From: Pseudomonadota bacterium
GTDB lineage: Bacteria > Bdellovibrionota_F > JAHFAK01 > JBDREC01
Reading direction: 5' to 3'
Assembly: GCA_043820105.1 (NCBI GenBank)
Contig: JBDREC010000010.1
Coordinates: forward strand, 1-64,000
DNA: 64,000 nt
Shown: positions 7,848 through 61,839 of the stretch, in pieces
Position numbering within the stretch: position 1 is the stretch's first letter
Layout: each line of letters begins with the position of its first letter
Notes under the pieces: model-generated
Told to the model about the DNA's origin: nothing
Database searches by the model: none
The model's input: the letters and a program-made list of their open reading frames with translations, nothing else
Made by a program: the position numbers and the translations under genes

Positions 7848-7876
7848 TTGATTTTTTGTACATATTTTTGTACAAT
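7848..7876 (+). promoter_or_regulatory. sigma70-type promoter overlapped by an inverted-repeat operator
   Basis: TTGATT-N17-TACAAT; TTGTACA-N6-TGTACAA at 7856-7875; ATG 6 nt after the -10. Confidence 0.6.
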
Positions 7877-7882
7877 TATAAC

Positions 7883-8266
7883 ATGATTTCTGTATTTGAT
7901 ATTATAAGCTCAAGCGCAAAAATTAAAATACTCAGGACACTTTTTTATCAAAACATAGAAATCTCCTTAAGGCAATTGGCTGTGCTATCTGACTTGCAAG
8001 TCAATTCAGTACAACATGGGATTAAGCAATTACTAAAAGAAAATGTTATTACAGAAAAAAGAAAAAAGAATCTTAGACTTTTTAGAATAAATAAGACTAG
8101 CAGCTACTATACGCTATTTATAATCTTATTCACAAAAGAGATGGAAGAGAGGATCAGGTCAAATTCAAGCACCTACAACAACAAAGCAAGATCAATTTTA
8201 AATTTTTCAAATTCTTCTATCAAACTATTGAAAAAAGCAAAAAAGGATAAAAATGGATCTAATTAA
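7883..8266 (+). CDS. Winged-helix DNA-binding protein (putative antitoxin)
   Basis: KIKILRTLF...ISLRQLAVLSDLQVNSVQHGIKQL wHTH pattern; overlaps downstream gene. Confidence 0.7.
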   Translation: MISVFDIISSSAKIKILRTLFYQNIEISLRQLAVLSDLQVNSVQHGIKQLLKENVITEKRKKNLRLFRINKTSSYYTLFIILFTKEMEERIRSNSSTYNNKARSILNFSNSSIKLLKKAKKDKNGSN

Positions 8267-8906
8267 ATTTTTTAAATTAATTATTAAACAGCTTGATAAA
8301 GCCAATGTTAAATATGCTTTGGCAGGAGGATTAGTAGCTTCAATTTACAGAACAGACGAAAGACTAACCAAAGATTTAGACTTTCTTATTTATTCTGAAA
8401 AAAATTCAAGTGATATTGCAATTCAAATTATCAAAGAATTTAGATTAAAGCATTTCGTAATCAGGAAAGCTCAACTAGAAGGTGGCCCCATGTTTGCCAT
8501 TAAAAAGCAAAGTACCCCTCCTTATATTATCTCGGGTAAGCCTAAAAAGGATCAAAATCAAATAGGCCTTGACTTTATTTTGCCTCAAATGCCGTGGTTT
8601 GAGAGTGCTCTTTTACGAGCTCAAAGCAATATGATTGATTTTGGATTTGCGCTTGTCCCGTGTTTAACTGTTGAGGATATAATAATTTCAAAATTCTATT
8701 CATTGCAAAATGATTCAAAGCGATTTAAAGATTTAGACGATTTAAAATCCATATTTGAGGCCAATCATAACTTAGACTTGGCCTATATTTCAGGACAAAT
8801 GCAAAAGCATAGTTTTCTCGTACCTGAAATGATCAAAGATCTTGCTCCTCAGTCCCTAGTTAAAGTTTCGAAGCAAATTTTGAAAAATATGAAACATTTT
8901 AAATAA
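8253..8906 (+). CDS. Nucleotidyltransferase-fold protein (AbiEii/DUF6036-like, putative toxin)
   Basis: GGLVASIY..ERLTKDLDF and EDIIISK...RFKDLDD motifs. Confidence 0.75.
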   Translation: MDLIKFFKLIIKQLDKANVKYALAGGLVASIYRTDERLTKDLDFLIYSEKNSSDIAIQIIKEFRLKHFVIRKAQLEGGPMFAIKKQSTPPYIISGKPKKDQNQIGLDFILPQMPWFESALLRAQSNMIDFGFALVPCLTVEDIIISKFYSLQNDSKRFKDLDDLKSIFEANHNLDLAYISGQMQKHSFLVPEMIKDLAPQSLVKVSKQILKNMKHFK

Positions 8907-10651: not shown

Positions 10652-11290
10652 TTAAAATAGCTTTTCTGGCCTATCAAAATACTCTTGAAGCCTATTAAAA
10701 AATATACCGGCATGGTAGCCGTCAACAAGGCCGTGATGAGCTTGAAGTGCAAAGGGCATTAAAAGTTTTTCATCTTGCTTGAAATACTTGCCAATACTAA
10801 TAACAGGAATGCTTGCCTTATTGCTTAAAATAATTGGATGCTGAATAGAAGTAAAAGAAATCCAGGGCACACAATTAACCCAAATGACATCATTTTCTTC
10901 TTTATCCTCAGAAAGCCTTTTAGGATTATTCTTCTTTGCCTCACCCCTTTGTTCCAAGTTCTCTAAAAAGATATTCAAATCTTTTTCAAAAGGCACAACA
11001 CAAAAATCATAAAGATTATTTTCAGCTGCAATTACAAAGGAAATATCAATTTTATCGTATTCAACAACATCTTCGTCTTTTATCCTTGTTCTTAATTCTG
11101 GAATCAAATTTACAGTTGATACAATGGAAAAATATATAGCATTAATAAGTTTTATTTTATTTTTTCTGGCAAATTTCTTTACTTGGCCAACTTCGAGATT
11201 TGTAGTTAAATTAAAAAACGGAAAATCAAAATTTTTATACATTTTATAAGAGTTTTTTCTAATCCACTTTTCCTGATCAATTATTTTCAT
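10652..11290 (-). CDS. cat: Chloramphenicol acetyltransferase (CatA-type) family protein
   Basis: VPWISFTS, IPVISIGKY and catalytic AHHGLVDGYH motif. Confidence 0.85.
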   Translation of the reverse strand: MKIIDQEKWIRKNSYKMYKNFDFPFFNLTTNLEVGQVKKFARKNKIKLINAIYFSIVSTVNLIPELRTRIKDEDVVEYDKIDISFVIAAENNLYDFCVVPFEKDLNIFLENLEQRGEAKKNNPKRLSEDKEENDVIWVNCVPWISFTSIQHPIILSNKASIPVISIGKYFKQDEKLLMPFALQAHHGLVDGYHAGIFFNRLQEYFDRPEKLF

Positions 11291-17414: not shown

Positions 17415-19883
17415 TTATTTAAAAATAAGGTTAATTAACTTTTCTTTGACATAAATGTGTTTAGCTAAAGTTTTTCCCTCTGAATGCTTTATTACTTTGT
17501 CTTGTTCTAAAGCAGTTTCTTTTATCGCATCTTCAGATGCACTTCTATCAATTTGAAGTTCACCTCTTAATTTGCCATTAACCATTACAGCCAATTTCAT
17601 TGTATCAAGGTGCAAATATTTTTCGTCCCATTTTGGCCAAGCTTCTTTAAAAACTGACTGGCTATTCCCAAGCTTTTCCCAAAGTTCTTCAGATAGGTGA
17701 GGAGCAAAGGGAGCCAAAATCACAACAAAGGTTTTTAAAATATTCTGAAGCAGAAATTTATTTTGCTTATCAACTGGAATGATTCTTAAATATTCTGTTA
17801 ATCCATTATAAAGCTCCATAAAGCGAGCAACAGAAGTATTAAACATAAATCTATCAGTATCAATAGTAGACATCTTAATAGTGTTATGAAAAATTAAAAG
17901 CAGTTTTTTGTCTTCTTCACTAAATTCTTGTTCAACTAAATCTTTAGCAAGCATTGTGTTTTCATTTTCTTCAAAAAGCCTGACTAACCTTTCTGAAAAT
18001 CTTACCATTGCCTTGAACCCAGTGTCATCCCATGGGCCACCATCAATATAATTAAAACCAAAACTCAAGTATAACCTCAATACATCAGAACCATAATCTT
18101 CAACATATTGATCAGGGGAAACAGAGTTACCTTTTGATTTTGACATCTTTTGACCATCAGGACCCAAAACCAAACCTTGATGAGTCAGGCTCGGGAAAGG
18201 TTCTTCAAAATCAATGAAACCAGCATCTTTTAAAGCCATTGTAATAAAACGAGCGTATAATAGATGCATGCAAGCATGCTCTGCGCCACCACAGTATTTG
18301 TCAACTGGAAGCATTTTTTTTGTTATTTCTTTATCAAAAGCGACATCATTAAAAGATGTGCTTGGATACCTTAAAAAATACCATGAAGAACAAACAAAGG
18401 TATCAAGAGTGTCAGGTTCACGAGTTGCTGCTTTTCCGCATTTTGGACAAGTTGTATGCATAAAAGTTTTGCTTGTAGCAAGAGGTGATTCGCCAGTTGG
18501 TTTGAATTCAGCGTCTTCAGGCAAACATACTGGAAGATCTTTTTCAGGGATTGGAACTTCTCCGCAATCTTCACAGTAAACAATTGGTATAGGCGATCCC
18601 CAGTAACGCTGTCTTGAAACTAACCAATCATGAAGTCGGAAATTTATTTTGCCCCGACCGATATCTGAGCCTTCCATGTCCTTTATAATAGCAGGAATCA
18701 TGTCAGTTGACAGCATATCATTATATTTATCTGAATTAATAACTTTTCCAGCCTCTACAAAAGCCTCAGTTAACTCATCTTCAGCTTTTTTACCTTCTTC
18801 TAAAATAACTTTCTTAATTTCTAAATTATATTTTTTGGCAAAGGCAAAATCTCTTTCATCATGAGCAGGAACTGCCATTACAACACCCGTACCATAAGAG
18901 TAAAGAACATAATCACCAACCCAAATTGGAACCTTTTCATTATTCAATGGATTAATTGCATAGGCACCTGTGAAAACTCCAGTCTTTTCATCAGTTGTAG
19001 AAAGTCTATCTATTTCTGATTTTGCTTTTGATTTTTCAATATAAGCCTTAACAGCTTCTTTGTTTTCTTCTTTTGTAATTTTATCAAGCATAGGGTGTTC
19101 TGGAGCAAACGTATTATAAGTTACACCATAAACAGTGTCTGGTCTGGTTGTAAAAACTGTAAATTTTTCACCGGAAGACTCAATTGTAAAATCAATTTCA
19201 GATCCTTCGCTTCTTCCAATCCAGTTTGATTGCATGCTCTTTGTTTTATGTGGCCAATCAAGACCGTCAATTCCATCAAGAAGCCTTTGAGCATAATCAG
19301 TAATTTTAAAAAACCACTGTCTCAAATTTTTCTTTGTAACTAAAGTGTCACAACGTTCACAAGCACCATCATGAACTTGTTCATTTGCTAAAACTGTTTG
19401 GCAATTTGGACACCAATTAACAGGTGCTTCTTTTCTATAAGCAAGTCCTTTTGCATAAAGCTTCAAAAACACCCATTGCGTCCATTTATAATAATCAGGT
19501 TTAGAAGTATCTAGGATATGCTTCCATGTATATGCAGTTCCCATCTTTTTGAACTGCTCAATCATATATTTTACATTTGTTGTGGTTGAATCATTTGGAT
19601 GAACACCCATTTTCACAGCATAATTTTCAGCAGGAAGCCCAAAAGCATCAAAACCCATTGGGAAAAACAATTTTTTGCCAGTCATTAATTGATATCTTGC
19701 CCAAGTATCCATTAATCCATATTGATACCAATGACCCATATGAAGTTTAGCAGCCGAAGGGTAAGGAAACATAACCAAAACATAAAATTTATCATCCGCA
19801 GAATTCACATCAAAATCAAAAACCCCATCTTTTTCCCATTTATCCTGCCATTTTGCTTCAATTTTTTTAAAGTCATGAGCCAT
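17415..19883 (-). CDS. leuS: Leucine--tRNA ligase
   Basis: MFPYPS, HMGH, GFDAFGLPAEN, SRQRYWG, KMSKS; AGGAG RBS before ATG 19883. Confidence 0.97.
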   Translation of the reverse strand: MAHDFKKIEAKWQDKWEKDGVFDFDVNSADDKFYVLVMFPYPSAAKLHMGHWYQYGLMDTWARYQLMTGKKLFFPMGFDAFGLPAENYAVKMGVHPNDSTTTNVKYMIEQFKKMGTAYTWKHILDTSKPDYYKWTQWVFLKLYAKGLAYRKEAPVNWCPNCQTVLANEQVHDGACERCDTLVTKKNLRQWFFKITDYAQRLLDGIDGLDWPHKTKSMQSNWIGRSEGSEIDFTIESSGEKFTVFTTRPDTVYGVTYNTFAPEHPMLDKITKEENKEAVKAYIEKSKAKSEIDRLSTTDEKTGVFTGAYAINPLNNEKVPIWVGDYVLYSYGTGVVMAVPAHDERDFAFAKKYNLEIKKVILEEGKKAEDELTEAFVEAGKVINSDKYNDMLSTDMIPAIIKDMEGSDIGRGKINFRLHDWLVSRQRYWGSPIPIVYCEDCGEVPIPEKDLPVCLPEDAEFKPTGESPLATSKTFMHTTCPKCGKAATREPDTLDTFVCSSWYFLRYPSTSFNDVAFDKEITKKMLPVDKYCGGAEHACMHLLYARFITMALKDAGFIDFEEPFPSLTHQGLVLGPDGQKMSKSKGNSVSPDQYVEDYGSDVLRLYLSFGFNYIDGGPWDDTGFKAMVRFSERLVRLFEENENTMLAKDLVEQEFSEEDKKLLLIFHNTIKMSTIDTDRFMFNTSVARFMELYNGLTEYLRIIPVDKQNKFLLQNILKTFVVILAPFAPHLSEELWEKLGNSQSVFKEAWPKWDEKYLHLDTMKLAVMVNGKLRGELQIDRSASEDAIKETALEQDKVIKHSEGKTLAKHIYVKEKLINLIFK

Positions 19884-19930
19884 GAAATATCTCCTATAAA
19901 ACAGATGTGTTAATAAAAAGAACAATGAGA

Positions 19931-19988
19931 GGTGTTTGGTATTTGGTATTCGGTATTCGGTATTCGGTATTCGGTATTCAGTGTTCAG
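19931..19988. repeat. Heptamer tandem repeat (GGTATTC)n
   Basis: Visible directly, with degenerate flanking units. Confidence 0.9.
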
Positions 19989-19997
19989 GTAAATCCA

Positions 19998-20045
19998 TTG
20001 TTCTCTTGTTCTCTTGTTCTCTTGTTCCCTTGTTCCCTTGTTCCC
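19998..20045. repeat. Octamer tandem repeat (TTGTTCYC)x6
   Basis: Visible directly; a related array is at 31621-31647. Confidence 0.9.
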
Positions 20046-20215
20046 TTTCTTAACTCCAAAATCATCGTTTGTAAATAAAAAGAAAACAACTTTTTTCTTA
20101 TTTCCAGAAACGATTTTAATAATTAAACGAGCTTTCGACAAATGAAATATAAAGAGGCCTCTTAAGCTCTTTAAATAATAGCCTCTTAACAAAAACCTTT
20201 AAACCGTATTCAATG

Positions 20216-23978: not shown

Positions 23979-24530
23979 TTAAATATTTTCCTGCAAGTAC
24001 AAGTCCCCAACAACAATACCTTCTACAATAAAGAAATGATCTTTACTTTCAACTGTAAAATTATAAACGACTCCATTATAAGCAAAAGAATTAATCTGCT
24101 TGATTCTCACAACACGGCCATCATATCCAAATAATTCATCTGATAAATTTAAATCTTCAACTAAAACAATATCTCCATTAAATAAAAGTAAAGGATGCTT
24201 TTTTGTTAGCATAATTTTTTTTCCATTATCAAGTTCGATATTTACAATGCTTTTAACTGTAAAAGCCTGACTTTGATATTTTTCAAGTATAGCACTTTCC
24301 TTAAGTGAAAATTCATCAGTGCCAAACACAGGAACAAAAATCGAAAAAGAAGCCATTTCATCAAATAAATCCCCTGCCTTTAAAAATCTTATTTGATCAT
24401 TTTCATTATTCCTTACCATAATTTTGCTGTCTGGGTGAAAACAGCTTGTGTTAATCACAAGCGAATATGCATTTACAAAGATTAAAACTGTAGCCAATAC
24501 AATAGCAAAAAAAACATTTTTAAAATTCAT
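23979..24530 (-). CDS. Secreted stand-alone Hint-domain protein
   Basis: Signal peptide then SCFHPDSKI (block A), LTKKHPLL (block B), VYNFTV...HFFIVEGIVVGD. Confidence 0.8.
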   Translation of the reverse strand: MNFKNVFFAIVLATVLIFVNAYSLVINTSCFHPDSKIMVRNNENDQIRFLKAGDLFDEMASFSIFVPVFGTDEFSLKESAILEKYQSQAFTVKSIVNIELDNGKKIMLTKKHPLLLFNGDIVLVEDLNLSDELFGYDGRVVRIKQINSFAYNGVVYNFTVESKDHFFIVEGIVVGDLYLQENI

Positions 24531-39501: not shown

Positions 39502-40740
39502 TCATAGATTTGCAATTCTCTTTAAATGCCTATCAATGATAGAAATAATATTGCTTACAATTTCACTTTTTGGATTTCCTTTGAAAATTTCCTGTTTCAA
39601 TATTGGAATGGCAATTTGTATTTTTTCAGAAACATTTTTTAATCTTTCTAAAATAAATGTTTTCTTAACTTCTATTTCATCAGCAAATCTTTCCCAATGC
39701 CTTTTTTGAATAAAATCAAAGCGATTTTCTCCTCCTATTTTCATTGCTAGTTTTTTCATTAATTCAGGATAAACCAGAGTTGAATTCAAATCATAAAAAG
39801 GAGCAAGGCATGGTTTATGCAATTCATAAAGAATTGAAATGTTTTTTGCATGAGCATCAGCATTACCTATTATATAATTAAAGATTACCCAATTAATCAG
39901 ATTATTCTTGTCTAAAAGAGGCTGAAAACTATATTTTTTAATAAGATTGAAGCAGTCAATAAGCTTTGGCCCTCCTTCATTTTCATATTTGTAGCTAGAA
40001 AGGTATCCTAGTGCCTGACAAAAATCCTCCTGATGAATCCTATACAATTTATCTAAATCGTTTTGTTTTCTATCATATCTTTTTATTAATAATCCTGCTT
40101 TATCTTCTGTTCTAATAATTTGCACATCTGAGACTGGAAGCTTTAAAAATTTTGCTAAGCTCATACAAAAATATTCATTTATAACAAGGTTTGGGAAATA
40201 TTTATTATCAGGTTTTAAAATATGAGAACTAGGCGAATTGTTTTTTGTTAAATATACACTTTCACCATCAAAGTAAACCGGAATTTTATCCTGGGCACCA
40301 GCCAGAGAAAGCCTAAGATCAGTGTTATGAGCTAAAAGCGGAATTTTTTTATCTGTTTTCAACATTTCTTTTAACCTGGATTCATCTAACTTTTTATATG
40401 AAAACTTACCATTATATTTATAATTTTTATTTACTATAGAAATAGCCCCAGCACATTCACCTCCAATTGCATCTAACAACAGCATATCATTTCTTTCAGA
40501 AATTTGAAGCATTCGTGCAAGATATGTCCTTATATCACCTTCTGGCAAAAGATTTGAAAAAAAGGATCTTGAAAAATCATCCAAATAAACTTCTTCCCTC
40601 AAAGGTAGCTGAATAGAAAGAGGAAAAGCTTTATCTAGTTTAAGATAATCTTTATCATACTTAAAACAAAACCTGCTTTTTTCATCCAGCCAAACTTCAC
40701 CTAGAAGAATATTTTCAAAATAAACATAAAGCTTGTTCAT
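39502..40740 (-). CDS. hipA: HipA-family kinase toxin
   Basis: SLAGAQDK, HILKP, IHQEDFCQALG, GNADAHAKN, LAPFYD. Confidence 0.93.
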   Translation of the reverse strand: MNKLYVYFENILLGEVWLDEKSRFCFKYDKDYLKLDKAFPLSIQLPLREEVYLDDFSRSFFSNLLPEGDIRTYLARMLQISERNDMLLLDAIGGECAGAISIVNKNYKYNGKFSYKKLDESRLKEMLKTDKKIPLLAHNTDLRLSLAGAQDKIPVYFDGESVYLTKNNSPSSHILKPDNKYFPNLVINEYFCMSLAKFLKLPVSDVQIIRTEDKAGLLIKRYDRKQNDLDKLYRIHQEDFCQALGYLSSYKYENEGGPKLIDCFNLIKKYSFQPLLDKNNLINWVIFNYIIGNADAHAKNISILYELHKPCLAPFYDLNSTLVYPELMKKLAMKIGGENRFDFIQKRHWERFADEIEVKKTFILERLKNVSEKIQIAIPILKQEIFKGNPKSEIVSNIISIIDRHLKRIANL

Positions 40741-40982
40741 TTTTCATGCCTTTCCACAATATCTAAAACAAATCCAAAATCCTGAAGCACCTTTAAAACC
40801 AAGCCAATTTGCAAAGTCTTTTTTCCTCTTTCTAGCTCAGAAAAAAATCTTGTTCCAATATTGCACATTGAAGCCGCATCTTTTTGCGTTATTCCAAGCT
40901 CTTTCCTTTTGTTTTTAATTAGTTGGCCTATCTGCAGCACATTCACAATATTCCCGCTAGGTAATATTTCATCTCTAATCAT
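40737..40982 (-). CDS. hipB: HipB-like XRE HTH antitoxin
   Basis: RKELGITQKDAASMCNIGTRFFSELERGK; ATGA overlap with hipA. Confidence 0.88.
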   Translation of the reverse strand: MIRDEILPSGNIVNVLQIGQLIKNKRKELGITQKDAASMCNIGTRFFSELERGKKTLQIGLVLKVLQDFGFVLDIVERHEK

Positions 40983-43771: not shown

Positions 43772-44089
43772 TCAAGTAACGGTACCACCTGTTCGGCAAG
43801 CACTACTGGAAAAATAATCTCCATTATAACAACCCATAGAAAAGTTATCAGTATCTGTTGATCCATTAGCCACACACCCAGAAGAAGTAGTAGAGCCTCC
43901 ATAACAGGTTGCACTTGCATGTGCTCCTGCATAACAAGTGTCTTGTTTCCCATCAGCTGGGGCACCACCAGTACCACAAGCATTCCATGAAGGTCCCTCT
44001 CGAACACCACTAGCCGATGAGCCGTTAGAACACTCTCATTTAACAGGCTGTGTTTGAAAATGATTTAAACCTGGTTTTTTGTATTTCAA
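43772..44089 (-). pseudogene. Second CxxG-repeat RiPP-like precursor, with in-frame TGA at codon 18
   Basis: GGAGG RBS, TTG start; MKYKKPGLNHFQTQPVK*ECSNGSSAS...CGTG..CYAG..CYGG..CVANG..CYNG..CRTGGTVT*; not in the ORF track. Confidence 0.75.
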
Positions 44090-44275
44090 TTTATCCTCCA
44101 TAATCTATAACTTTTAAAGAAAAATAATAACAGATAAAAAAAACTCTGTCTAGTTAATATCTTTAGCTTTCAATGTAAGTCAGTTTAACATTTTCACTAC
44201 CATAATTTGACAATATGTAAACATTTTGTATAGTTACAATTGTATTTTAAAAATATTTGTGTTGGAGATTTGTTG

Positions 44276-44410
44276 ATGTTAAAATACCATAAACCGAGAC
44301 TCACTTTATTAAATAAAAATTCAAGAGGTAATCTAAATTGTACAACAGGAACTAATGCATCAGTAGATGAAACTTGTGAACAAGGAACACATCTTGAAAG
44401 TCATGCATAG
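44276..44410 (+). CDS. Third, short CxxG-repeat precursor-like peptide (44 aa)
   Basis: GGAG RBS; MLKYHKPRLTLLNKNSRGNLNCTTGTNASVDETCEQGTHLESHA. Confidence 0.65.
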   Translation: MLKYHKPRLTLLNKNSRGNLNCTTGTNASVDETCEQGTHLESHA

Positions 44411-48881: not shown

Positions 48882-49184
48882 CTAATTAACTTTTAATTCA
48901 AGCAATCCATCTGAAATGCTTTGAAGAAATTTTTCATCCACTCTATTGTAATCCAAAATATCTACCTTAAATTTAAGATTACTTTCTTCAAATGCTTCTT
49001 TTAATTTTTCAATTAATGCCGGATCAATGACAGCTGCGGATTTTAATAAAAGATCAAGATCAGAGGCTTTATTATTTGAATTATTGGATCTGGATCCAAA
49101 AACAAATACTTGCATTTTTAGTTCTGCAAATAATTTGCTCAAAATGTGTCTGATAATAGCAAGCTCACTTTGGCTCAAATTCAT
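48882..49184 (-). CDS. Minimal nucleotidyltransferase (MNT) antitoxin-like protein
   Basis: VFVFGSRS...ASDLDL, FKVDILD. Confidence 0.88.
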   Translation of the reverse strand: MNLSQSELAIIRHILSKLFAELKMQVFVFGSRSNNSNNKASDLDLLLKSAAVIDPALIEKLKEAFEESNLKFKVDILDYNRVDEKFLQSISDGLLELKVN

Positions 49185-49576
49185 AGCTGTCCTTTTTCCT
49201 TTAACTTTGAAAGTAGTTTTTCAGCATATTCAGGAAAATCTTTTATTATAGAAAAAACGAAGTCAGAATCTTTTTTGCTATAAAGATGTGTTGTTGAATT
49301 TCTAGCGTCAAGATAGCGGAACCATGTGTCCAGGTCATCTAAAAAGCCTTCCTGTAAAGCATCTCTAAAAAGAGGTTTGGGACTTGCACTTACATCCACT
49401 TTACCTAGAGAAATCAAAACTCTCCTAATCATCTTCCAACATTGTTCAAATGTATATTCAAATCTTTGAATAACCCCATCTCTTTCCAGGTCATTTTTAG
49501 GTTCATTTAAAAGCCCTTCTTTTAGGCTTAATAAGGCATTTTCAAAGAAAGTAAAATCAATTTTTTTAATATCCAT
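49181..49576 (-). CDS. HEPN / nucleotidyltransferase substrate-binding protein (HI0074-like)
   Basis: RDGVIQRFEYTFE, SPKPLFR, RNSTTHLY (R-x4-H-x-Y). Confidence 0.9.
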   Translation of the reverse strand: MDIKKIDFTFFENALLSLKEGLLNEPKNDLERDGVIQRFEYTFEQCWKMIRRVLISLGKVDVSASPKPLFRDALQEGFLDDLDTWFRYLDARNSTTHLYSKKDSDFVFSIIKDFPEYAEKLLSKLKEKGQL

Positions 49577-50095: not shown

Positions 50096-50614
50096 ATGAA
50101 TCTCTTGGGATTAAAAAAGAAGCTATTTAAAACAATTTTGATAATTATTATTTTTCTTTTTAATTTTCATTCAATTTTCAGCTTATCTCAAAAAGATAGC
50201 AAAAGGGCTAGTTTTCTTCAAATAGTTCTTGAAACTGAAGATTTTTCAAAGCTAAATAAAATGACTGCTAACAATGCAATTCATGCATTTGTTGGTAGAA
50301 TAAATCTTGAGAATGAAAGTTTTTTAGATTCAATAATTCAATCAGGAGCTCTTTCTTTTATACCTCTTTCTTTTTTTCAGCATATTAATTTAACAAAAAG
50401 ATATTATAAAAACCCATCCCAAGAAGAAATTAACACTCTAATACAGGTTCTGTTTGCTCTTTCTGATTCTTTGCTTCCAGATCCTACTAAATATCAGATT
50501 CAAAAATTAACAAATTCACAAAAGAAAATTCAGATTGAATCATGTATCATAAATTCAAAAATTGTAAGAGATGCTAATATGCATAAATTCTTTGGAAAAC
50601 TTGAGACTATCTAA
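50096..50614 (+). CDS. Hypothetical secreted protein, possibly truncated
   Basis: GGAAGG RBS, signal-peptide-like N-terminus; stops about 15 nt before the element end. Confidence 0.55.
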   Translation: MNLLGLKKKLFKTILIIIIFLFNFHSIFSLSQKDSKRASFLQIVLETEDFSKLNKMTANNAIHAFVGRINLENESFLDSIIQSGALSFIPLSFFQHINLTKRYYKNPSQEEINTLIQVLFALSDSLLPDPTKYQIQKLTNSQKKIQIESCIINSKIVRDANMHKFFGKLETI

Positions 50615-50748
50615 TCATTGGGTCTACCTAACCTGGCATAGCCAGAACCAAAAAGGAATCAAAGCATCATTTTAGCTCATAATTTTTTGATAGTATCAAG
50701 TGGCTTCAGCTATCAGGCTTCTGACTACAAGGCTGTTAGTAGATAGTT

Positions 50749-50910
50749 TCAGAGATCCTTGGATAAAACAGAAATTAATTTCTGTAATGCTCTAATCAAT
50801 TCATCATATTGAGATTTTAAATAATTATTGGTTGTTTTTGTTAAATATCCAAGTCGAAAGGATAAGCTTAGAAGATAGCGTACTTCAGAAGCAGAGGATA
50901 TAGCAACCTT
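50749..50910 (-). pseudogene. C-terminal half of a four-helix-bundle (23S rRNA IVP-like) protein
   Basis: VAISSASEVRYLLSLSFRLGYL...YDELIRALQKLISVL*. Confidence 0.7.
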
Positions 50911-51303
50911 TCTAGGGAAAAAACTTCATTCAAATTATCAAGGTGAAATGGGCAATTCTTTTAGTACAAGAATCGAAGGCACAAAAATCAAGCATTGCAT
51001 GGGCTCTTCATCAATCAAGATGTATGATAAATTGGGATTTATTTTAAGAATCGAAACAACTGCAAATGACATTACATTTTTTAAACACTATCGAACGATA
51101 GAACACAAGGACGGTACAAGTAGCAAAAAAATAGCCAAAAAGTATCAAGAATCCTTAAAAGACTTCATGTTCACGGATTAATTAAAAAAGTTCGTAATAG
51201 CTATAAATATTATCTGACAAAATTGGGAAAGAATGTAATAATCGCTGGATTTTCACTTGTTGAATTTCTTGTTAAACCGGAGTTGTCTCGTAATCTTTCC
51301 TGA
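50897..51303 (+). pseudogene. Deleted/frameshifted remnant of a mobile-element protein with C-terminal wHTH
   Basis: IATFLGKKL...SIKMYDKLGFILRIETTANDITFFKHYR, then in another frame RILKRLHVHGLIKKVRNSYKYYLTKLG. Confidence 0.65.
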
Positions 51304-51396
51304 AGCCGGAAGCCTGGAGCCTGTAGCCACTTTCAATGGTTCCAGAAACTCCTCACAACTTTTTCTCTCACTTTTGTGCAGAAAATTATGGATTAG

Positions 51397-51630
51397 TTCC
51401 TAATAAATAGATACGCAGCAGAAGATTTTTGGGTAAAATGGAATGAATATTTCAAAAGTGTTGTTTTAGAAGTCTTTTTTTCTAATCCAGAAGAAGCATA
51501 CAACAACCTGGGACTGACAGATAAAGAAAAAGACAGAATCATTTATCTAAAAGAAGTAGAGAATGATAAAATTAATAATAACGATTTATTTTTCCTAATT
51601 AGTATATTAAAAATATATTATTCTATCTAA
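51397..51630 (+). pseudogene. Start-less 3' gene fragment beginning at the element's right end
   Basis: Open frame NRYAAEDFWVKWNEYF...KIYYSI* with no start codon. Confidence 0.4.
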
Positions 51631-52168
51631 TATTAACTTCATTATCAAAATTTTCCCGATAAATTACTTCATCATTTCCTTTTGCATGTAGGAACTTTCT
51701 GGGATAGTATTCAAGTATAAAGGTTCAATTGGTGCAAAAGATATAAAAAATAAAACATAAACCACACTAGATCATTCTATTTTCCAGATACTGGAATATG
51801 CATATAAGAATTTTTACAACAAGAGAAAAGCATTGACGATGTTGGCGAAAAGTCAGATGATAGTTTTCTCGATGAAGTAATTAAGTATTTCTTTGGTGAA
51901 TCAGAAACTGAAAATTAGAATAAAGTGGATATGGAGTTTTTTAATGCTTTTTTTTGGTTTAGAAAAATAAATAGTGCGGAGGTGGTAGGCAGACCTTTCC
52001 CCCTACACAAAAGAAGTAAATTCCTCATAAGATTTGAAAAAACTAAATTTCTATGAAAGTAATTTCAAAGAATATTAATAATAGTTTTAGATTCTATTTT
52101 AATAATCAATATCCATCTATTAGCAGTCTCTCCTACAAAATCACAATGATCGATTGATCCAATGAATT

Positions 52169-53653
52169 TTATCTTATAAATGGTTTTTTCATCTTTTTAA
52201 AGATTTCTGAAGTATCATCTTTTGAACATTCAGTATCACTATATTGAATATCAGGATCTAATAAATACTGTTCATACATTTCATTAACACAAGTGCTTGA
52301 CCCAAGTGCAACATGCTGTTCTCCATTAAATGTTAGTAGAAATGATCCATCAATTTCACCTGTTAGTGTTTGAGCCCACTCATAAGGAGTTGCTGGATCT
52401 CCTGTTGTTCCAACAATCATAATCTGTGGGGCTTTCTGAACATCAATTATTTTTGGCTCCATGCTTGGTTCAACAGGCCAATATGTGCAAAAAAGCATTC
52501 CATAAATCATTAGTGGACCGAAAAAAGGATATAGCTCAGCTGACTTCTCAGCTTCTAATCTAACTTCGTCAGCACTTAAAGAAGAACTATCAAGACAGTT
52601 AATTGCATTGAAAACATCCATAAAATTACCATATGTTCCATCTTCTTGTCGTTCAAAGTAATAATCAGTCCATTCAAGTAGCAATGATCCATCACCTAGT
52701 AATGCTTGATCTAAAGCTTCTTCCAGATATGGCCAATATGCTTCTGAATAAAGAGTCATTAATATTGCAATTTCAGCATCAGACCTACTTAAGGTTCTAT
52801 CTTGGTCTGTTGGCAATGGGTTCAATTCAATATCATCAAGAAGATTATTTAATGCAGGTTGAGGATCCCCTTCATTAAAAACATTAGTTGCTGTTTCTGC
52901 ATATGAAGTTAGAAATTCTTGCAAAGATTTTTCAAAGCTTTTTGCCTGGCCTAATGAAATTTCAAGAGGTGTAAGAGATGGTGATAAAGCACCATCAAGA
53001 ACCATAGCTCTTATATTTTCAGGATATGTTTCAGCATATAATGCACCTATTTTTGTGCCATAGGATAGTCCTATATAATTTAATTTTCCTTCACCAAGCT
53101 CTTCTCTAAGCGTTTCTAAGTCACGCACAACCTCAACCGTGCCTACATGTTCAAGCAAATTACCATTTTCTTCTTCGCATTTGGAAGTATATTCTTGAAT
53201 CAATTCAGTTACTTCATTAAATTCAGAATCGTTTTCTGGAATTGGCCATGCAAAATATGGAACCGGATCATCAACACAAGTAATATTTACAGATTGACCA
53301 ACACCCCTTGGATCAAAGCCTATAAGATCGAAATGCTCTCTTAAGATAATTCCAAAGTCAGTAAATGCAAAAAATTCAACATACTCAGTTGCAGATCCTC
53401 CAGGTCCTCCTGGATTCATAAAAATACTTCCTTGTTTTTCTCCAGTTGCAGAAAATCGTATTAAAGCAAGTTCAATCTCTGTTCCATCATTATTTTCATA
53501 ATCAAGTGGCACCATAAATTTGGCACATTCTCCACCATCTTCACCACATGAGCTCCATTCAAATGATGTTGTAGCAAGCTCAGATTCTAAACAGCCAATG
53601 CATAATAAACAAACCCCTAATATAAATAATGTGAAAATTGTTTTTTTATCCAT
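52169..53653 (-). CDS. Alpha/beta hydrolase lipoprotein (TAP/peptidase S33-like)
   Basis: NPGGPGGS, GFDPRGVG, GLSYGT nucleophile, GDPATP, GEQH. Confidence 0.9.
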   Translation of the reverse strand: MDKKTIFTLFILGVCLLCIGCLESELATTSFEWSSCGEDGGECAKFMVPLDYENNDGTEIELALIRFSATGEKQGSIFMNPGGPGGSATEYVEFFAFTDFGIILREHFDLIGFDPRGVGQSVNITCVDDPVPYFAWPIPENDSEFNEVTELIQEYTSKCEEENGNLLEHVGTVEVVRDLETLREELGEGKLNYIGLSYGTKIGALYAETYPENIRAMVLDGALSPSLTPLEISLGQAKSFEKSLQEFLTSYAETATNVFNEGDPQPALNNLLDDIELNPLPTDQDRTLSRSDAEIAILMTLYSEAYWPYLEEALDQALLGDGSLLLEWTDYYFERQEDGTYGNFMDVFNAINCLDSSSLSADEVRLEAEKSAELYPFFGPLMIYGMLFCTYWPVEPSMEPKIIDVQKAPQIMIVGTTGDPATPYEWAQTLTGEIDGSFLLTFNGEQHVALGSSTCVNEMYEQYLLDPDIQYSDTECSKDDTSEIFKKMKKPFIR

Positions 53654-56100: not shown

Positions 56101-57126
56101 TTGAAAATTGCAATGCTATCGCCGATAGCCTGGAGAACGCCACCTGTGCATTATGGTCCCTGGGAAAGATATGTTTCCTTACTTACAAATGCTCTATTAA
56201 AAAATAATATAGATGTTACATTGTTTGCTACAAAAGAATCTCAAACTGCAGGGAAACTGCATGCTATAGCCCAAAAAGGCTATGAAGAAGATTCCACAAT
56301 CGATCCAAAAGTGTGGGAATGTTTGCATATTTCTGAAGTTTTTGAAAAGGCAAAGGAATTTGACCTTATACATAATAGTTTTGATTTTCTGCCTCTTAGC
56401 TACAGTAGCTTGGTTGCAACCCCTGTTGTTACAACAATTCACGGTTTTTCTTCAGAAAAGATTTTGCCTGTTTATAAAAAATATAATAAAAACACTTATT
56501 ACATCGCAATCAGCAATTCAGATCGCAGTCCTCAATTAGATTATATTGATACTATTTATCATGGAATTGATATTGAGAATTTTACCTTTAATGAAAATCA
56601 TCAAAAAGATTATTTGTTATTTTTTGGCAGAATTCATCCAGATAAAGGCACAAAAGAAGCTATCGAAATTGCAAATAAAGTGAATATGAAACTAATAATT
56701 GCAGGAATAATTCAAGATGAAAATTATTTTAAAAATTATATAAAACCACATTTTACTAATTCTAGTGTTGAATATATTGGAAGCGTTGGAAATGAAAAAC
56801 GAAATGCAATTTTAAAAAATGCTTATGCCCTTTTACATCCTATAAATTTCAATGAACCCTTTGGCTTTTCAATTGTTGAAGCAATGGCATGTGGAACTCC
56901 AACAATAGCATTTAACAAAGGATCTATGCCAGAACTAATTACAGATGGCCATGATGGCTTTTTAGTAAACACTGTTTCAGAGGCTTGTGAAGCTGTAAAT
57001 AAAATTGAAACTATAGACCGAATAAATTGCAGAAAAACTGTAGAGAATAGATTCACTACAGATATTATGGTAAATAAATATATAAATGTTTATGAAAAAA
57101 TTATTAAAAATCACAAAAAACAATGA
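56101..57126 (+). CDS. Glycosyltransferase family 4
   Basis: PPVHYGPWE, GRIHPDKG, EPFGFSIVEAMACGTP. Confidence 0.92.
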   Translation: MKIAMLSPIAWRTPPVHYGPWERYVSLLTNALLKNNIDVTLFATKESQTAGKLHAIAQKGYEEDSTIDPKVWECLHISEVFEKAKEFDLIHNSFDFLPLSYSSLVATPVVTTIHGFSSEKILPVYKKYNKNTYYIAISNSDRSPQLDYIDTIYHGIDIENFTFNENHQKDYLLFFGRIHPDKGTKEAIEIANKVNMKLIIAGIIQDENYFKNYIKPHFTNSSVEYIGSVGNEKRNAILKNAYALLHPINFNEPFGFSIVEAMACGTPTIAFNKGSMPELITDGHDGFLVNTVSEACEAVNKIETIDRINCRKTVENRFTTDIMVNKYINVYEKIIKNHKKQ

Positions 57127-57138
57127 GAGAGGATTTTT

Positions 57139-58071
57139 ATGTCTATAGTTAAAAGATACTCAAAAAATCCAATATTAACTAAAAATGATATCCCTTATGA
57201 AGTAGCAACTGTTCACAATGCTGGAGTTACAAAATATAGGGATAAATATATAATGTTATTTAGATCCCATAAACTAAATGGCAGATCTATTATTGGAATT
57301 GCAAAAAGTGATAATGGTTTTGATTTTAAGGCTGAAAAAGAACCCTTCTTGATACCGGCTACGGACGGAATTTTTGCTGAATATGAAGAATATGGTGTTG
57401 AAGATCTTCGAATTTGCGATATGAAAGAAGAGGGATTTTTATTAACCTACAGCGCTTATTCCAAACATGGGGTCAGAATAATGCTTGCTAAAACCTATGA
57501 TTTTGAGACAGTTGATAAAATAGCTCCAATAAGCCAGGCTGATATGCGAAATACTGTTATATTTCCTGAAAAATTTAATGGCTTGTATGCAAGACTCGAC
57601 AGGCCACACTCTGAAATTTCCCCCTGGTCTATTTGGATTTCCTATTCAAAAGATTTAATATACTGGGGAAACTCAAAAGTTATTATGAAACCCGTCAAGT
57701 ACCACTGGGATGAAATGAAAATTGGCCCAGGTGCTACTCCTATAAAAACTGATAAAGGATGGTTGCATATTTATCATGGTGTTTTTAATACAATGGATGG
57801 AGCGGTATACAGGTTAGGAGTAGCTCTGCATGATATAAAAGATCCTTCAAAGATCATAGGAGTATCAGACAAATGGATTCTTTCACCAGAAGATCCCTGG
57901 GAATTAACAGGCTATGTGCACAATGTTGTTTTCACTTGCGGGGCAGTTTGTGAAGACGATGGTACAGTTAAGATTTATTGGGGAGCTGCTGATTCTGTAA
58001 TGTGTGTAGGAGTTGTAAAATTGGATGATTTAATAAAACTTTGTTTGAATGCACCCAGAAACCCAGTTTAA
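57139..58071 (+). CDS. GH130-family glycoside hydrolase/phosphorylase
   Basis: YSKNPIL, HNAGV, YGVEDLR, KIGPGATP, GYVHNVVFTCG, YWGAAD. Confidence 0.9.
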   Translation: MSIVKRYSKNPILTKNDIPYEVATVHNAGVTKYRDKYIMLFRSHKLNGRSIIGIAKSDNGFDFKAEKEPFLIPATDGIFAEYEEYGVEDLRICDMKEEGFLLTYSAYSKHGVRIMLAKTYDFETVDKIAPISQADMRNTVIFPEKFNGLYARLDRPHSEISPWSIWISYSKDLIYWGNSKVIMKPVKYHWDEMKIGPGATPIKTDKGWLHIYHGVFNTMDGAVYRLGVALHDIKDPSKIIGVSDKWILSPEDPWELTGYVHNVVFTCGAVCEDDGTVKIYWGAADSVMCVGVVKLDDLIKLCLNAPRNPV

Positions 58072-58092
58072 CATTAAAAAAAGGAGCCCAAT

Positions 58093-60369
58093 ATGGATTC
58101 TACATTGAATTTAAATTATCCACAAAACATTGCTATGATTGGCAACTATCTTCCCAGAAGATGTGGTATTGCAACTTTTACAACTGACTTAACTAATGCC
58201 ATAGCAAAGGAAATTGAAAATGAAGATAGCCTTATGGTAATTGCTATGAATGATAATAATGAAGGATACAATTATCCTGAGAAAGTAAAATTTGAATTAA
58301 GGCAAAATAATCCTTCTGATTATCTAAGAGCTGCTGAATTTCTTAATGTTAAGAATATTGATGTTACAATTTTACAACACGAATATGGAATCTTTGGGGG
58401 ACAAAGTGGAGCAACCTTATTTCGACTTTTAGAAAATTTAAAAACTCCTATCATTACAAATTTGCACACAGTTCTTTTTAAACCAACTGCTGAACAAAAA
58501 ACTATTATAATGAGATTGTCTGAAATATCAGACCGTTTACTGGTTATGTGCCATAAAGCTGAAGAAATTTTGCATGATGTTTATAAAATACCAAAAGAGA
58601 AAATTACATACATACCTCATGGAATACACGATGTGCCTTTTGTTGATTCCTGTTTTTACAAAGATAAATTTGGACTTGAAGATAAAAAAGTTATTTTAAC
58701 CTTTGGATTACTAGGTCCAAGTAAAGGTCTTGAATCGATGATTGATGCAATGCCATTAATTGTTAAAAATCATCCTGATGCTGCATATGTTATACTTGGT
58801 GAAACCCATCCGCACGTTATTAAACACAGCGGAGAACAGTACAGGCATAGCTTGCAGCAAAAAATACATAGATTAGGAATGAATCATCATGTGTTATTTT
58901 TCAATCAATTTGTAGATATAAAATCGTTAACTCAATTTTTATCAGTAGCAGATGTTTTTGTAACTCCATACCCAGAAAAAGATCAAATTACTTCAGGTAC
59001 TCTAAGTTACGCTTTTGGTGCAGGAAAGGCTATCGTTTCAACGCCATATATTTTTGCAGAAGAACTTTTAGCTGATGAAAGAGGGGTTTTAGTGCCTTTT
59101 AATGATTCAAAAGTAATGGGAGAAGCTATTTCCGACTTGCTGTCTAATGAATCAAAAAGAAATCAATTGAGGATAATGGCATATCAAAGTGGTCGCTCAA
59201 TGGTTTGGAAAGAAGTTGCCCGTAACTACCTGAAAGTGGCACAAGAGGTCTTGAATAAAAATATCGCCAGTCCAAAAACATTTTTTCAGGATATAAAATT
59301 AAGAAAACTAGATAGCCTTCCACAAATTAGTCTCGACCATTTAAAAATTATGACAGATGACACAGGAATAATCCAACATGCCTATTTTTCAATTCCAAAA
59401 AGAGCATTCGGTTATTGCACTGACGATAATGCAAGAGCATTGGTTGCAACATGCATGTATTACTCATTAACAAAGGACGAACAAATTATTCCTTTAATAA
59501 AAACTTATATCTCCTTTGTTTTAGATGCATACAATAATGATAAAAAACGGTTCCGAAATTTCATGTCATATAATAGAAGTTGGGTAGAAAAAGAGGATGA
59601 TGATGCACATGGCAGAGCCCTATGGGGTTTGGGAACTGCGATCGCTACTTTGAATGATCAAGTAATAATTAACGGGATTAGTAAAATTTTCATGCAAAGC
59701 GCAGAAAAAATAGAAGAATTTGAATCTCCACGAGCCTGGGCTTTTGCTTTAGTTGGCATAAATAACTATCTTAAAATATTTGAAGGAGATTCAACAGTAA
59801 GGAAAATAAGAACAAATTTAGCCAGCAAATTGTTCGAAAAATTCAAAAATAATATATCTAAGGACTGGATATGGTATGATGATATTGTGACATATGCAAA
59901 TGCAAAATTACCTCAGGCATTACTTTTATCCGGAAATGCCACAGGGGACAAGGAAATGGTGGAACTATCCTTAGAAATTCTTCAATGGTTATTAAAAATT
60001 CAGACTAGTGATAGTGGACATTTATCAATAATTGGAAATGATGGATGGTATAAAAAGGGAAGTTTCCCTTCTCATTTTGATCAACAGCCTGTTGATGTGA
60101 GTGCTCTTGTTGAGGCCTGTGTTGATGCTTACAGAATTACACATGATAAATTCTGGCAATCAGAATCTCAAAAATGCTTTGACTGGTTTTTAGGCAGAAA
60201 TGACATAAACACACCTGTTTGTGATTTTAAATCAGGCGGCTGTTATGATGGCCTCCAGGTTAATGGTTTAAATCAGAACATGGGGGCTGAATCCACTCTT
60301 GCCTGGCTCATATCACTTCTGACTATGCACAGCATATTCAGTCAAGAAGTTCTTCCAGTAAAAGATTAA
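58093..60369 (+). CDS. GT4 glycosyltransferase fused to an (alpha/alpha)6-like domain
   Basis: PRRCGIATF, QHEYGIFGG, QITSGTL; then GYCTDDNARAL, FDQQP, GGCYDGL, NMGAESTL. Confidence 0.88.
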   Translation: MDSTLNLNYPQNIAMIGNYLPRRCGIATFTTDLTNAIAKEIENEDSLMVIAMNDNNEGYNYPEKVKFELRQNNPSDYLRAAEFLNVKNIDVTILQHEYGIFGGQSGATLFRLLENLKTPIITNLHTVLFKPTAEQKTIIMRLSEISDRLLVMCHKAEEILHDVYKIPKEKITYIPHGIHDVPFVDSCFYKDKFGLEDKKVILTFGLLGPSKGLESMIDAMPLIVKNHPDAAYVILGETHPHVIKHSGEQYRHSLQQKIHRLGMNHHVLFFNQFVDIKSLTQFLSVADVFVTPYPEKDQITSGTLSYAFGAGKAIVSTPYIFAEELLADERGVLVPFNDSKVMGEAISDLLSNESKRNQLRIMAYQSGRSMVWKEVARNYLKVAQEVLNKNIASPKTFFQDIKLRKLDSLPQISLDHLKIMTDDTGIIQHAYFSIPKRAFGYCTDDNARALVATCMYYSLTKDEQIIPLIKTYISFVLDAYNNDKKRFRNFMSYNRSWVEKEDDDAHGRALWGLGTAIATLNDQVIINGISKIFMQSAEKIEEFESPRAWAFALVGINNYLKIFEGDSTVRKIRTNLASKLFEKFKNNISKDWIWYDDIVTYANAKLPQALLLSGNATGDKEMVELSLEILQWLLKIQTSDSGHLSIIGNDGWYKKGSFPSHFDQQPVDVSALVEACVDAYRITHDKFWQSESQKCFDWFLGRNDINTPVCDFKSGGCYDGLQVNGLNQNMGAESTLAWLISLLTMHSIFSQEVLPVKD

Positions 60370-60387
60370 AAAAAGGAGTAAATTTAT

Positions 60388-61839
60388 ATGGACATGATTA
60401 AAGTTAAAAGAAAAGGTGATATTTTTAAAGGTGATTCGTCAAGGGTTATTGCAAAATTCTTTTCTTGCGGAGGAAGAAAAAGGAAAAAAAGAATTATTGG
60501 TCAAATTCTGAAACTTAGTGACGGAGACAGTAAAAAATTATTAAAATCCGTTCTTGAAGATTTTTCAGATAGGCACCATAATATTGAAGATATTTTATTG
60601 GATCATTATTTACGAGTTGAAAAACATCTTTCTGAAGACATTAAATTATCAAAATATCGCAAACTTTTAATTGGGTCTTATTTCACACACGAATATTCCA
60701 TAGAATCTGCTGCTCTTTTTAATCCATCAATCGTTCCACATCCAAATCAAAAAAATCTTAATGAAAATTCATTGAGAATTATTTTGAGTTTTCGTGGTGT
60801 AGGTGAAGGTCACGTTTCTTCTGTTGTTTTTAGAAGTGGTGTTTTAGATAAAAATAATAATATTATTATAGATACGGTAAGTCCCTATGTAGAAACTCCA
60901 ACAGTTAGTTTAAATCCTTCTTTTAGTAAACATACCTTTTTATTAAAATTAGAAGAATTGGGAGCAAAAAATTACATCTCAGATGAAATATTCAAAAAAT
61001 TACCAACACAATTTAGTTTTGGTCAGTTGAATGATGCTATAATAAAATTAAAAATAGAATTTAGAGGATCTGTTATTTTTTTAAAAACGAAGGATGTAAT
61101 TGATTTTATATCTCAATCAAACTATGAGGAAACTTTTAGAAAGGAATCTGACATATCAGAAAGAGTTATTTTTCCAGTTATAGAAGATGAAAGCAATGGC
61201 ATAGAAGACGCGCGCTTCGTTTTATTTACAGACGATAATGGTAAAAAGAAATATTATGCAACATATACTGCTTATGACGGGCGAACAATTTTCCCAATGC
61301 TACTTGAAACAAACGATTTTCTAACTTTCAAAATATGTACCTTAAATGGAGAAGCATCGAAAGACAAGGGAATGGCCTTGTTTCCCAGAAAAATAAATAA
61401 ACAATACACAATGATTTCAAGAATAGATAAAGAGAACATTTATATCATGCAATCGAATAATATTCACTTCTGGAATGAAGCCAAACTATTACAAACCCCA
61501 AAATATGACTGGCAGTTTATTCAGATCGGAAATTGCGGATCTCCGATTGAAACAAAAGAAGGCTGGCTGCTTTTGACTCACGGGGTTGGCCCCTTAAGAA
61601 AATATTGTATAGGTGCCATGTTATTAGATCTTGAAAATCCAGCAAAAGTCATTGGACAGCTTGAAAAACCTCTTATATCGCCCAATGAATATGAAAGAGA
61701 AGGATATGTGCCAAATGTTGTTTATACTTGTGGTGCTTTATTACATAATGAAACATTGGTCATACCTTATGCTGTGTCTGATACAGCTTCAGGGATCGTT
61801 ACAATTCAACTGGAAGATTTACTAAATAAACTTAAATAA
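60388..61839 (+). CDS. Long-form GH130-related glycosidase
   Basis: EYSIESAALFNPS, GEGHVSS, GIEDARF, YYATYTAYDG, GNCGSP, REGYVPNVVYTCG. Confidence 0.88.
   Translation: MDMIKVKRKGDIFKGDSSRVIAKFFSCGGRKRKKRIIGQILKLSDGDSKKLLKSVLEDFSDRHHNIEDILLDHYLRVEKHLSEDIKLSKYRKLLIGSYFTHEYSIESAALFNPSIVPHPNQKNLNENSLRIILSFRGVGEGHVSSVVFRSGVLDKNNNIIIDTVSPYVETPTVSLNPSFSKHTFLLKLEELGAKNYISDEIFKKLPTQFSFGQLNDAIIKLKIEFRGSVIFLKTKDVIDFISQSNYEETFRKESDISERVIFPVIEDESNGIEDARFVLFTDDNGKKKYYATYTAYDGRTIFPMLLETNDFLTFKICTLNGEASKDKGMALFPRKINKQYTMISRIDKENIYIMQSNNIHFWNEAKLLQTPKYDWQFIQIGNCGSPIETKEGWLLLTHGVGPLRKYCIGAMLLDLENPAKVIGQLEKPLISPNEYEREGYVPNVVYTCGALLHNETLVIPYAVSDTASGIVTIQLEDLLNKLK

Follow-up and report, generated by a model that had tools for sequence, protein, structure and literature searches.

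Orphan CxxG-repeat peptide genes, one interrupted and one shortened, in a 64-kb bacterial DNA segment: members of a family probably linked to the SynChlorMet cassette

Do the two short divergent genes at positions 43772-44410 of contig JBDREC010000010.1 (Pseudomonadota bacterium, assembly GCA_043820105.1) encode precursors of a modified peptide, and which enzymes would act on them? We analysed positions 1 to 64,000 of this contig, the whole stretch of DNA that is referred to here as the window. The first-pass annotation had proposed two CxxG-repeat precursor genes at this locus and had joined them with a peptide 43 kb away into a dispersed family of RiPPs (peptides synthesized on ribosomes and then modified post-translationally). 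Here we refer to the distant peptide as P1 (minus strand, 1049-1291, stop at 1046-1048), to the longer gene of the divergent pair as P2 (minus strand, 43775-44089) and to the shorter one as P3 (plus strand, 44276-44407). The three probably belong to a widespread, unnamed precursor family which is linked to the SynChlorMet (Scm) cassette, and they are present here as orphan copies, of which P2 is broken and P3 is shortened.

The longer gene had been described with six CxxG units, one CxxxG unit and a ribosome-binding site, all of which are found on the minus strand; at 44089-43775 we read M(TTG)KYKKPGLNHFQTQPVK, an in-frame TGA, and then ECSNGSSAS...CRTGGTVT. The leader covers 44039-44089; its TTG start (44087-44089), followed by KYKKPGLNHFQTQPVK, yields M-KYKKPGL, which is exactly the family N-terminus (MKYxKPxL). 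The ribosome-binding site GGAGGA, read from the sequence at 44094-44099, lies 4 nt before this TTG, and the alternative ATG start at 44099-44101 is without a Shine-Dalgarno sequence. The in-frame TGA (44036-44038, codon 18, also read from the sequence) separates the leader from a core of 87 codons (43775-44035) with the six CxxG and one CxxxG, which ends in a second TGA (43772-43774). Under table 11, the minus strand from 44101 to 43772 is translated as MEDKLKYKKPGLNHFQTQPVK, stop, ECSNGSSASGVREGPSWNACGTGGAPADGKQDTCYAGAHASATCYGGSTTSSGCVANGSTDTDNFSMGCYNGDYFSSSACRTGGTVT, stop, at which the translatable part is only a leader piece of 17-21 aa. The ORF (open reading frame) list likewise holds, in the same frame, a 21-aa leader ORF and, much later, a 33-aa ORF starting with GTG, and no in-frame start is present in the core before its last 33 codons. 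As TGA is a normal stop in the window and interrupts P2, the gene is not an intact ORF, and its six CxxG units do not give at least five in one uninterrupted ORF. The family sequences reported at both genes are therefore real, but the longer gene is not one ORF, since its in-frame TGA had been overlooked.

P3 (TAG stop 44408-44410) encodes MLKYHKPRLTLLNKNSRGNLNCTTGTNASVDETCEQGTHLESHA, a 44-aa short member with the leader and two CxxG units, and has the ribosome-binding site GGAGA (44264-44268, read from the sequence) 7 nt before its ATG, as had been claimed for it. Its two units are fewer than the five taken as the mark of the family, in which 5-8 are usual, and its match to the family profile spans profile positions 1-39 only. 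The divergent arrangement that had been reported is also present; the starts of P2 and P3 are separated by ~186 bp, with a sigma-70-like promoter site for each. These sites are TAGACA-17-TATTAT with a TG extension for P2 (minus strand, 44124-44152, 10/12) and TTGACA-16-TATAGT for P3 (plus strand, 44207-44234, 11/12). Both are consensus matches only, and matches of this kind are no rarity in the AT-rich region (11 found against 7.3 expected). The pair is flanked by a gene for a YitT-family membrane protein and one for an outer-membrane beta-barrel protein.

P1 is an intact member of 81 aa, with seven Cys in its core, six of which are in CxxG, and an eighth Cys in its leader; at least five units thus lie in one intact ORF. 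A sigma-70-like promoter site, TTGACA-17-TATTAT, is found upstream of it (minus strand, 1416-1444, a consensus match of 11/12). AlphaFold2, given 28 sequences, returned a mean pLDDT (predicted local distance difference test score) of 48 and no confident autonomous fold for P1, as would suit a precursor better than a folded protein.

We then asked how firmly the three peptides can be joined into one family. The leader M-[KR]-Y-x-[KR]-P-x-[LI] is present in P1, P2 and P3, and 10-13 residues past the leader motif each of them carries a first core motif (CVDGSGAS, CSNGSSAS and CTTGTNAS) of the form C-x-x-G-[ST]-x-A-[ST]. The matches of leader and first core to P1, as well as that of the tail of the longer peptide, had already been pointed out and are indeed present in the sequence. 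In the six-frame translation of the window, Y.[KR]P.[LI] occurred five times and C..G.{1,3}AS four times, and in each case three of the occurrences were P1, P2 and P3, with constant motif order and spacing. A DNA pattern of the motif matched only P2 and P3 in the window and gave no match in 100 shuffles. P1 and P2 were aligned by BLASTP (E=6e-6, 33% identity over 90 columns), and the alignment crosses the TGA. A profile hidden Markov model (HMM) of 24 members that are not from the window was searched against 2,441-2,447 six-frame segments of the window, and detected P1 (E=4.4e-13), P3 (E=1.8e-7) and P2 with its TGA read as X (E=1.3e-9, profile positions 1-78). The P2 core alone was detected at E=1.6e-3, and the next best of the remaining segments had E of at least 1.2. 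As judged from these sequence matches, the window holds exactly three family members, P1, P2 and P3.

The peptides were not recognised by existing families. When P1, P2 and P3 were compared with Pfam and NCBIfam at E≤10, no model was found, apart from one noise match. A phmmer search of P2 against 1.84 billion representatives gave nine matches, all of them proteins of 340-960 aa, which were judged to be spurious; the five that were inspected carry NPGPSWKAIGTGDFNGDG-type repeats and resemble only a local stretch of P2. A word-based search with P1 returned zero candidates, and in the ESM Atlas P1 matched only unnamed hypothetical clusters (scores 0.90-0.91).

To get a clearer picture of its distribution, we scanned one genome per species from 185,579 species with the degenerate DNA pattern K-Y-x-[KR]-P-x-[LI]...C-x-x-G-[ST]-x-A-[ST]...C-x-x-G; the genome of the window itself is not in this collection. 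The scan yielded 22 loci, against a rough estimate of our own of ~20 chance matches. An HMM built without any sequence from these loci detected 12 ORFs at E≤6e-6 in 10 of the 22, and nothing under E=0.2 in the other 12. By their record titles, the loci with true members come from a Pseudomonadota metagenome-assembled genome (MAG; L004), a MAG labelled Woesearchaeota (L006), Victivallaceae (L008, with three copies), Omnitrophota (L009), a 'delta proteobacterium' (L011), bacterium BMS3Abin06 (L012), Kapabacteria (L016), Desulfatiglandales (L019), Aminicenantes (L020) and Lentisphaerota (L021). The checks that had been suggested for the locus, namely a six-frame motif search and a wider genome scan, have thus led to three members in the window and to ten loci with true members elsewhere.

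A profile search of 5.8 billion proteins gave 27 members at E≤1e-3, among which is P3, present in the collection as the window's own protein (P0033). Most of the 27 are without a name, those that have one are called hypothetical protein, and none has a Pfam domain. The family is made up of peptides of 44-105 aa with cores of 50-85 residues, and its consensus is MKYxKPxL, about 11 residues, CxxGSxA[ST], and then about five more CxxG (~5-8 in total) at a spacing of 10-12. Y3, P6, C20, G23, A26, C32 and G35 are invariant in 26 aligned sequences. Excluding the P2 TGA, 150 of the 163 true core Cys are in CxxG, with a modal unit spacing of 10-12 residues, and many members end in Ser or Thr. A fixed Cys/Gly scaffold with variable loops and the hallmarks of RiPP precursors, as had been proposed for a dispersed family, is borne out, though P3 has only two of the repeats. 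The family profile gave one noise match in the PDB (E=0.93) and no solved structure. Within the family, we also observed a tight subfamily of 73-74 aa (MKYQxPxL...AYxxCxSG...GDSEW), to which L008 3408-3626 and the database members P0013, P0015 and P0017-P0029 belong (14 of the 27 database matches); Victivallales cassettes may have it as their core type of substrate.

Which enzymes could act on such peptides was examined from the genes beside the relatives, using the NCBIfam SynChlorMet models for ScmC (TIGR04249), ScmD (TIGR04248), ScmE (TIGR04250) and ScmF (TIGR04251). Scm genes above the model cut-offs adjoin the peptides at three of the ten loci (L008, L011 and L012), which are from differing lineages. 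The minus strand of L008 carries, in this order, a precursor, ScmD (97.4 bits on TIGR04248, cut-off 100; Pfam PqqD at 8.8e-13) and ScmE (464 bits on TIGR04250, cut-off 400), while its plus strand carries a precursor, ScmC (170 bits, cut-off 125) and another precursor. The plus-strand run starts 137 bp from the first precursor and is divergent to it, and this divergent precursor pair mirrors the arrangement of P2 and P3. At L012 a partial ScmE (391 bits) is followed by ScmF (615 bits), a precursor, a TumE toxin-antitoxin pair and ScmC (286 bits). The TumE pair of L012 is inserted between precursor and ScmC (891-1862), and next to it part of the ScmC 5' end is present in duplicate (1563-1862). 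At L011, ScmC (240 bits) and a precursor are accompanied by an MsbA-like ABC exporter, of which the C-terminal half is present, and by an IS701 transposase. L009 is suggestive as a fourth locus: its precursor is accompanied by a methyltransferase and by a distant ScmC/HprK-like gene that, at 32.8 bits, stays under the cut-off. ScmC had no match among 72,556 plasmids.

The cassette has the parts that are typical of RiPP systems, namely two radical S-adenosylmethionine (SAM)/SPASM enzymes, a RiPP recognition element (RRE) of the PqqD type and an HprK-like protein. By analogy with described systems, the PqqD-like ScmD would bind the Y-x-K-P-x-L leader, as RREs bind the YxxPxL leaders of lasso peptides. 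The radical SAM/SPASM proteins ScmE and ScmF would modify the CxxG units, the likeliest outcome being that each unit receives one thioether cross-link from its Cys. Phosphorylation of a Ser or Thr may be the task of the HPr-kinase-like ScmC, and an ABC transporter would export the product.

The first of these steps was also modelled. A complex prediction for ScmD of L008 with residues 1-36 of its neighbouring precursor scored 0.55, against 0.01 for the best control. The partner had a pLDDT of at least 54, and contact agreement between runs was at least 94%. Solved complexes attain the mark used for such predictions in 116 of 157 cases and mismatches in 2 of 215, and scores of 0.60 or less include only 18 of the 157 solved complexes and both passing mismatches. 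RRE-leader complexes have already been solved structurally, and the pass of the ScmD-leader pair may therefore reflect likeness to these.

Several points weigh against the linkage to the Scm cassette. Six of the ten related loci have only unrelated genes, with none that is Scm-like within 2 kb on each side, and the link draws on only three loci above the cut-offs and one below. In the window itself we found no Scm gene, radical SAM, SPASM or PqqD (Pfam on 49 ORFs, NCBIfam on 31 ORFs and tblastn with seven Scm proteins). The pattern used for the genome scan was narrow (AAA-TAY at the start and [ST]xA[ST] required) and covered flanks of only 2 kb, the ScmD-leader prediction gave only weak support, and the thioether and kinase steps are drawn by analogy only. 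Furthermore, with P2 interrupted and P3 without most repeats, a product from this locus is not indicated. One tblastn match to ScmD in the window (53114-53350, E=1e-3) lies inside an alpha/beta hydrolase, showed no PqqD Pfam match at E≤0.1, and was treated as chance.

The lack of a maturase near six of the ten related loci and in the window would also be expected if the peptides were unmodified Cys-rich peptides, binding metal or held by disulfides, and their closeness to Scm genes were incidental. We consider this improbable, as the three precursors of L008 are interleaved with ScmC, ScmD and ScmE and the adjacency recurs in other lineages at L011 and L012. The N-terminal Y-x-K-P-x-L block, moreover, resembles a known RRE-binding leader motif; no signal peptide was seen by eye, and no fold was predicted. 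We thus retain the family as one of precursors linked to the Scm cassette. Since the window is without an Scm gene, the most fitting reading of the locus is one of precursor copies that are orphaned and in part decayed; if the genome has a cassette in another place, P1 and P3 alone could be its substrates in trans. The search for a cognate radical SAM/RRE cluster that the first-pass annotation had proposed has accordingly given radical SAM/SPASM and PqqD-type neighbours in relatives, but no maturase in the 64-kb window.

We also put forward a broader proposal, in which our confidence is tentative and stops a little short of probable: that the Scm cassette has its substrates, hitherto unrecognised, in the CxxG-repeat peptides, which would represent a new RiPP class in which two radical SAM/SPASM enzymes cross-link each of about six tandem CxxG units and the precursors, like the three copies of the window, are often scattered and served in trans. 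If true, such a class would span Lentisphaerota to Omnitrophota and beyond. In the sources we searched, the SynChlorMet cassette has so far been a label without substrate or chemistry, and the link to the peptides supplies a candidate substrate. To our knowledge, the text of the NCBIfam models gives the precursor of the cassette as unidentified. Our literature search found no paper on the SynChlorMet cassette or on the peptide motif, most subscription journals being outside its coverage, and queries for YxKPxL or KYxKP leaders or Cys-rich RiPPs returned only lasso papers and one unrelated paper on a copper RiPP. What appears to be new, then, is the peptide family and its link to the cassette; an undescribed system, as had been suggested, stands in that part but not for the enzymes, which are already catalogued as SynChlorMet TIGR04248-04251. 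The family profile offers a means to find such small genes, which are labelled only hypothetical protein where they are named at all. For the present window, it means one broken and one shortened orphan copy, and not a working cluster.

The leader also raised the question of whether the peptides could be lasso-peptide precursors. In actinobacterial lasso peptides the conserved motif of the leader is YxxPxL, and the partners are PqqD-like RREs (PMC6784204). PqqD-like and HPr-kinase-like proteins occur in some lasso clusters, and in those of the paeninodin type the HPr-kinase homologue phosphorylates the C-terminal Ser of the precursor (PMC8498205). The family here is similar in its near-N-terminal Y-x-x-P-x-L, in the stand-alone PqqD-like partner and in its many Ser or Thr C-termini. 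However, neither the lasso cyclase (Asn-synthetase-like) nor the B2 protease was found in the window or in the scanned neighbours of the ten loci, the neighbours are radical SAM/SPASM enzymes, and Cys/Gly-repeat cores of 50-85 residues are entirely different from lasso cores. We regard a lasso precursor as extremely improbable and keep to precursors of the Scm cassette.

Further comparisons are offered by ranthipeptides and sactipeptides such as the PapA/PapB system (freyrasin), which share with the family repeated Cys motifs in the core and with the cassette a radical SAM/SPASM enzyme. PapB is described as forming thioethers from Cys to Asp or Glu on repeated Cys motifs (PMC10739248 and PMC9413430). 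In contrast, the unit here is CxxG every 10-12 residues with no conserved Asp/Glu acceptor, the Scm cassette has two radical SAM enzymes along with an HprK-like protein and a PqqD protein that is separate, and ScmE scores 89 bits on the PapB model (cut-off 340). Another similar case is CrpA of Methanococcus voltae, for which PMC13692751 reports a leader-like N-terminus and a C-terminal C-X-X-Q/D array on which the SPASM radical SAM enzyme CrpC installs ranthionine links. The leader-like region and the array of repeated Cys motifs are alike; however, CrpA is large, with a 17-residue repeat, and its enzyme belongs to TIGR04463 with a fused RRE (same source), whereas here CxxG units are carried by substrates of 44-105 aa, which are associated with ScmE and ScmF. 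The SynChlorMet cassette itself is the nearest known system in that relatives of the peptides directly adjoin its genes at L008, L011 and L012, and it differs in that the window has no cassette genes and that no NCBIfam model covers the peptides.

It remained to explain the in-frame TGA of P2. Stops of the 49 ORFs of the window are TAA in 34, TGA in 11 and TAG in 4, and as 11 of the 49 end with TGA, it is a working stop here. Table 25, in which TGA is Gly, joins P2 into one frame, and was rejected, as the ORFs tile the window (~31% G+C) cleanly under table 11, with full-length leucyl-tRNA synthetase (LeuRS), ALAD and AcrB and many other domains uninterrupted, in addition to the 11 TGA stops. 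Crude ORF counts with the stops reassigned were uninformative. Three readings were weighed, and it is most likely that P2 was inactivated by a nonsense TGA.

The second reading, a TGA for selenocysteine (Sec) in an intact Sec-containing precursor, draws on the 87 family-like codons that stay open after the TGA, the alignment of leader and core to the family across it, and the host-like G+C content at third codon positions (GC3) of the P2 core. In the column of the TGA, two residues before the first core Cys, a Cys is present in two of the 26 aligned relatives, namely L008:3408-3626 and P0028; however, a Cys codon becomes TGA by one base change, so this column suits a nonsense mutation equally. 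Of the UGA and the SECIS (selenocysteine insertion sequence) hairpin that together mark bacterial selenoproteins, the UGA is present and the hairpin was not found, since the RNA 3' of the UGA, when compared with shuffles, had a z of -0.24 for 86 nt and of +0.02 to +1.52 for 40-70 nt, with no stable hairpin. Rfam gave zero matches at gathering scores in the whole window and, at E≤5 at the locus, three noise matches to eukaryotic microRNAs or small nucleolar RNAs. Neither tRNA-Sec nor sel genes are present in the 64-kb window (no tRNA at all was found there), and 11 of the 49 ORFs, like P2 itself, terminate with TGA. We therefore call this reading unsupported and quite improbable.

That P2 is in reality intact, and that its TGA arose from faulty assembly or sequencing or is polymorphic among strains, is the third reading and is rather unlikely. 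In its favour, P2 has a single disabling change and is otherwise family-typical with host-like codon use, and the nearest relatives of LeuRS are unnamed metagenome proteins and the nearest with a name are MAGs, which hints that the window is a metagenome assembly. On the other hand, the clean tiling of ORFs under table 11 does not indicate poor assembly in the window, and the relative at L020 is likewise broken, by a frameshift, which shows that decay of orphan copies does occur. In this Aminicenantes member (1786-2143), the frameshift comes after the second CxxG, and the rest of the core is found in another frame (E=0.0077); it is another decaying orphan copy, like P2. Inactivation of P2 by the nonsense TGA thus remains our preferred reading.

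The three copies differ in composition. GC3 is 0.20 for P2 (0.21 for its core) and 0.09 for P3, compared to a gene mean of 0.23 (sd 0.03). By composition, P2 and P3 are native and long-resident, since their values fit this host mean. P1, with a GC3 of 0.52, more than 9 standard deviations higher, looks foreign and like a recent horizontal arrival, because of this value and the adjoining fragment of a REP (repetitive extragenic palindrome)-associated tyrosine transposase, which is the ORF at 3-863, whose N-terminal 96 residues match that family at 52.7 bits (cut-off 80). Directly upstream of P1, on the minus strand at 1851-5285, a run of three genes encodes an extracytoplasmic function (ECF) sigma factor, a protein of 267 aa that weakly matches DUF4384, and a 708-aa caspase-domain protein that carries LA_2272-type surface repeats.

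LeuRS (minus strand, 17418-20192) has nearest relatives that are only 59-66% identical, those at 59% being MAGs labelled Cloacimonadota or Oligoflexia, and the lineage of the genome is therefore sparsely sampled. As the LeuRS of the collection has 822 aa, the true start lies downstream of the TTG that we used.

Other features of the window include three toxin-antitoxin-like pairs at 7856-8903, 39505-40982 and 48885-49576: an AbiEii-family nucleotidyltransferase with a 136-aa ORF upstream, HipA with a helix-turn-helix partner, and a nucleotidyltransferase with a substrate-binding, HEPN-like partner. A CatA-like O-acetyltransferase (minus strand, 10655-11290) reaches 130 bits on the model of the type A chloramphenicol acetyltransferase, far short of its cut-off of 270; it is accordingly only a relative and does not count as a confirmed resistance gene. 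At 23982-24530 on the minus strand, a 183-aa ORF has only the N-terminal splicing region of an intein/Hint domain, with no obvious host protein (below gathering in Pfam; 32 bits on NCBIfam intein_Nterm). The 1.5 kb at 50614-52169, without an ORF of at least 80 aa, probably represents an insertion sequence that has decayed; its short broken ORFs include one of 77 aa that by eye resembles a transposase remnant. Two GT4 glycosyltransferase genes and two GH130 (mannoside phosphorylase-type) genes are clustered at 56101-61839.

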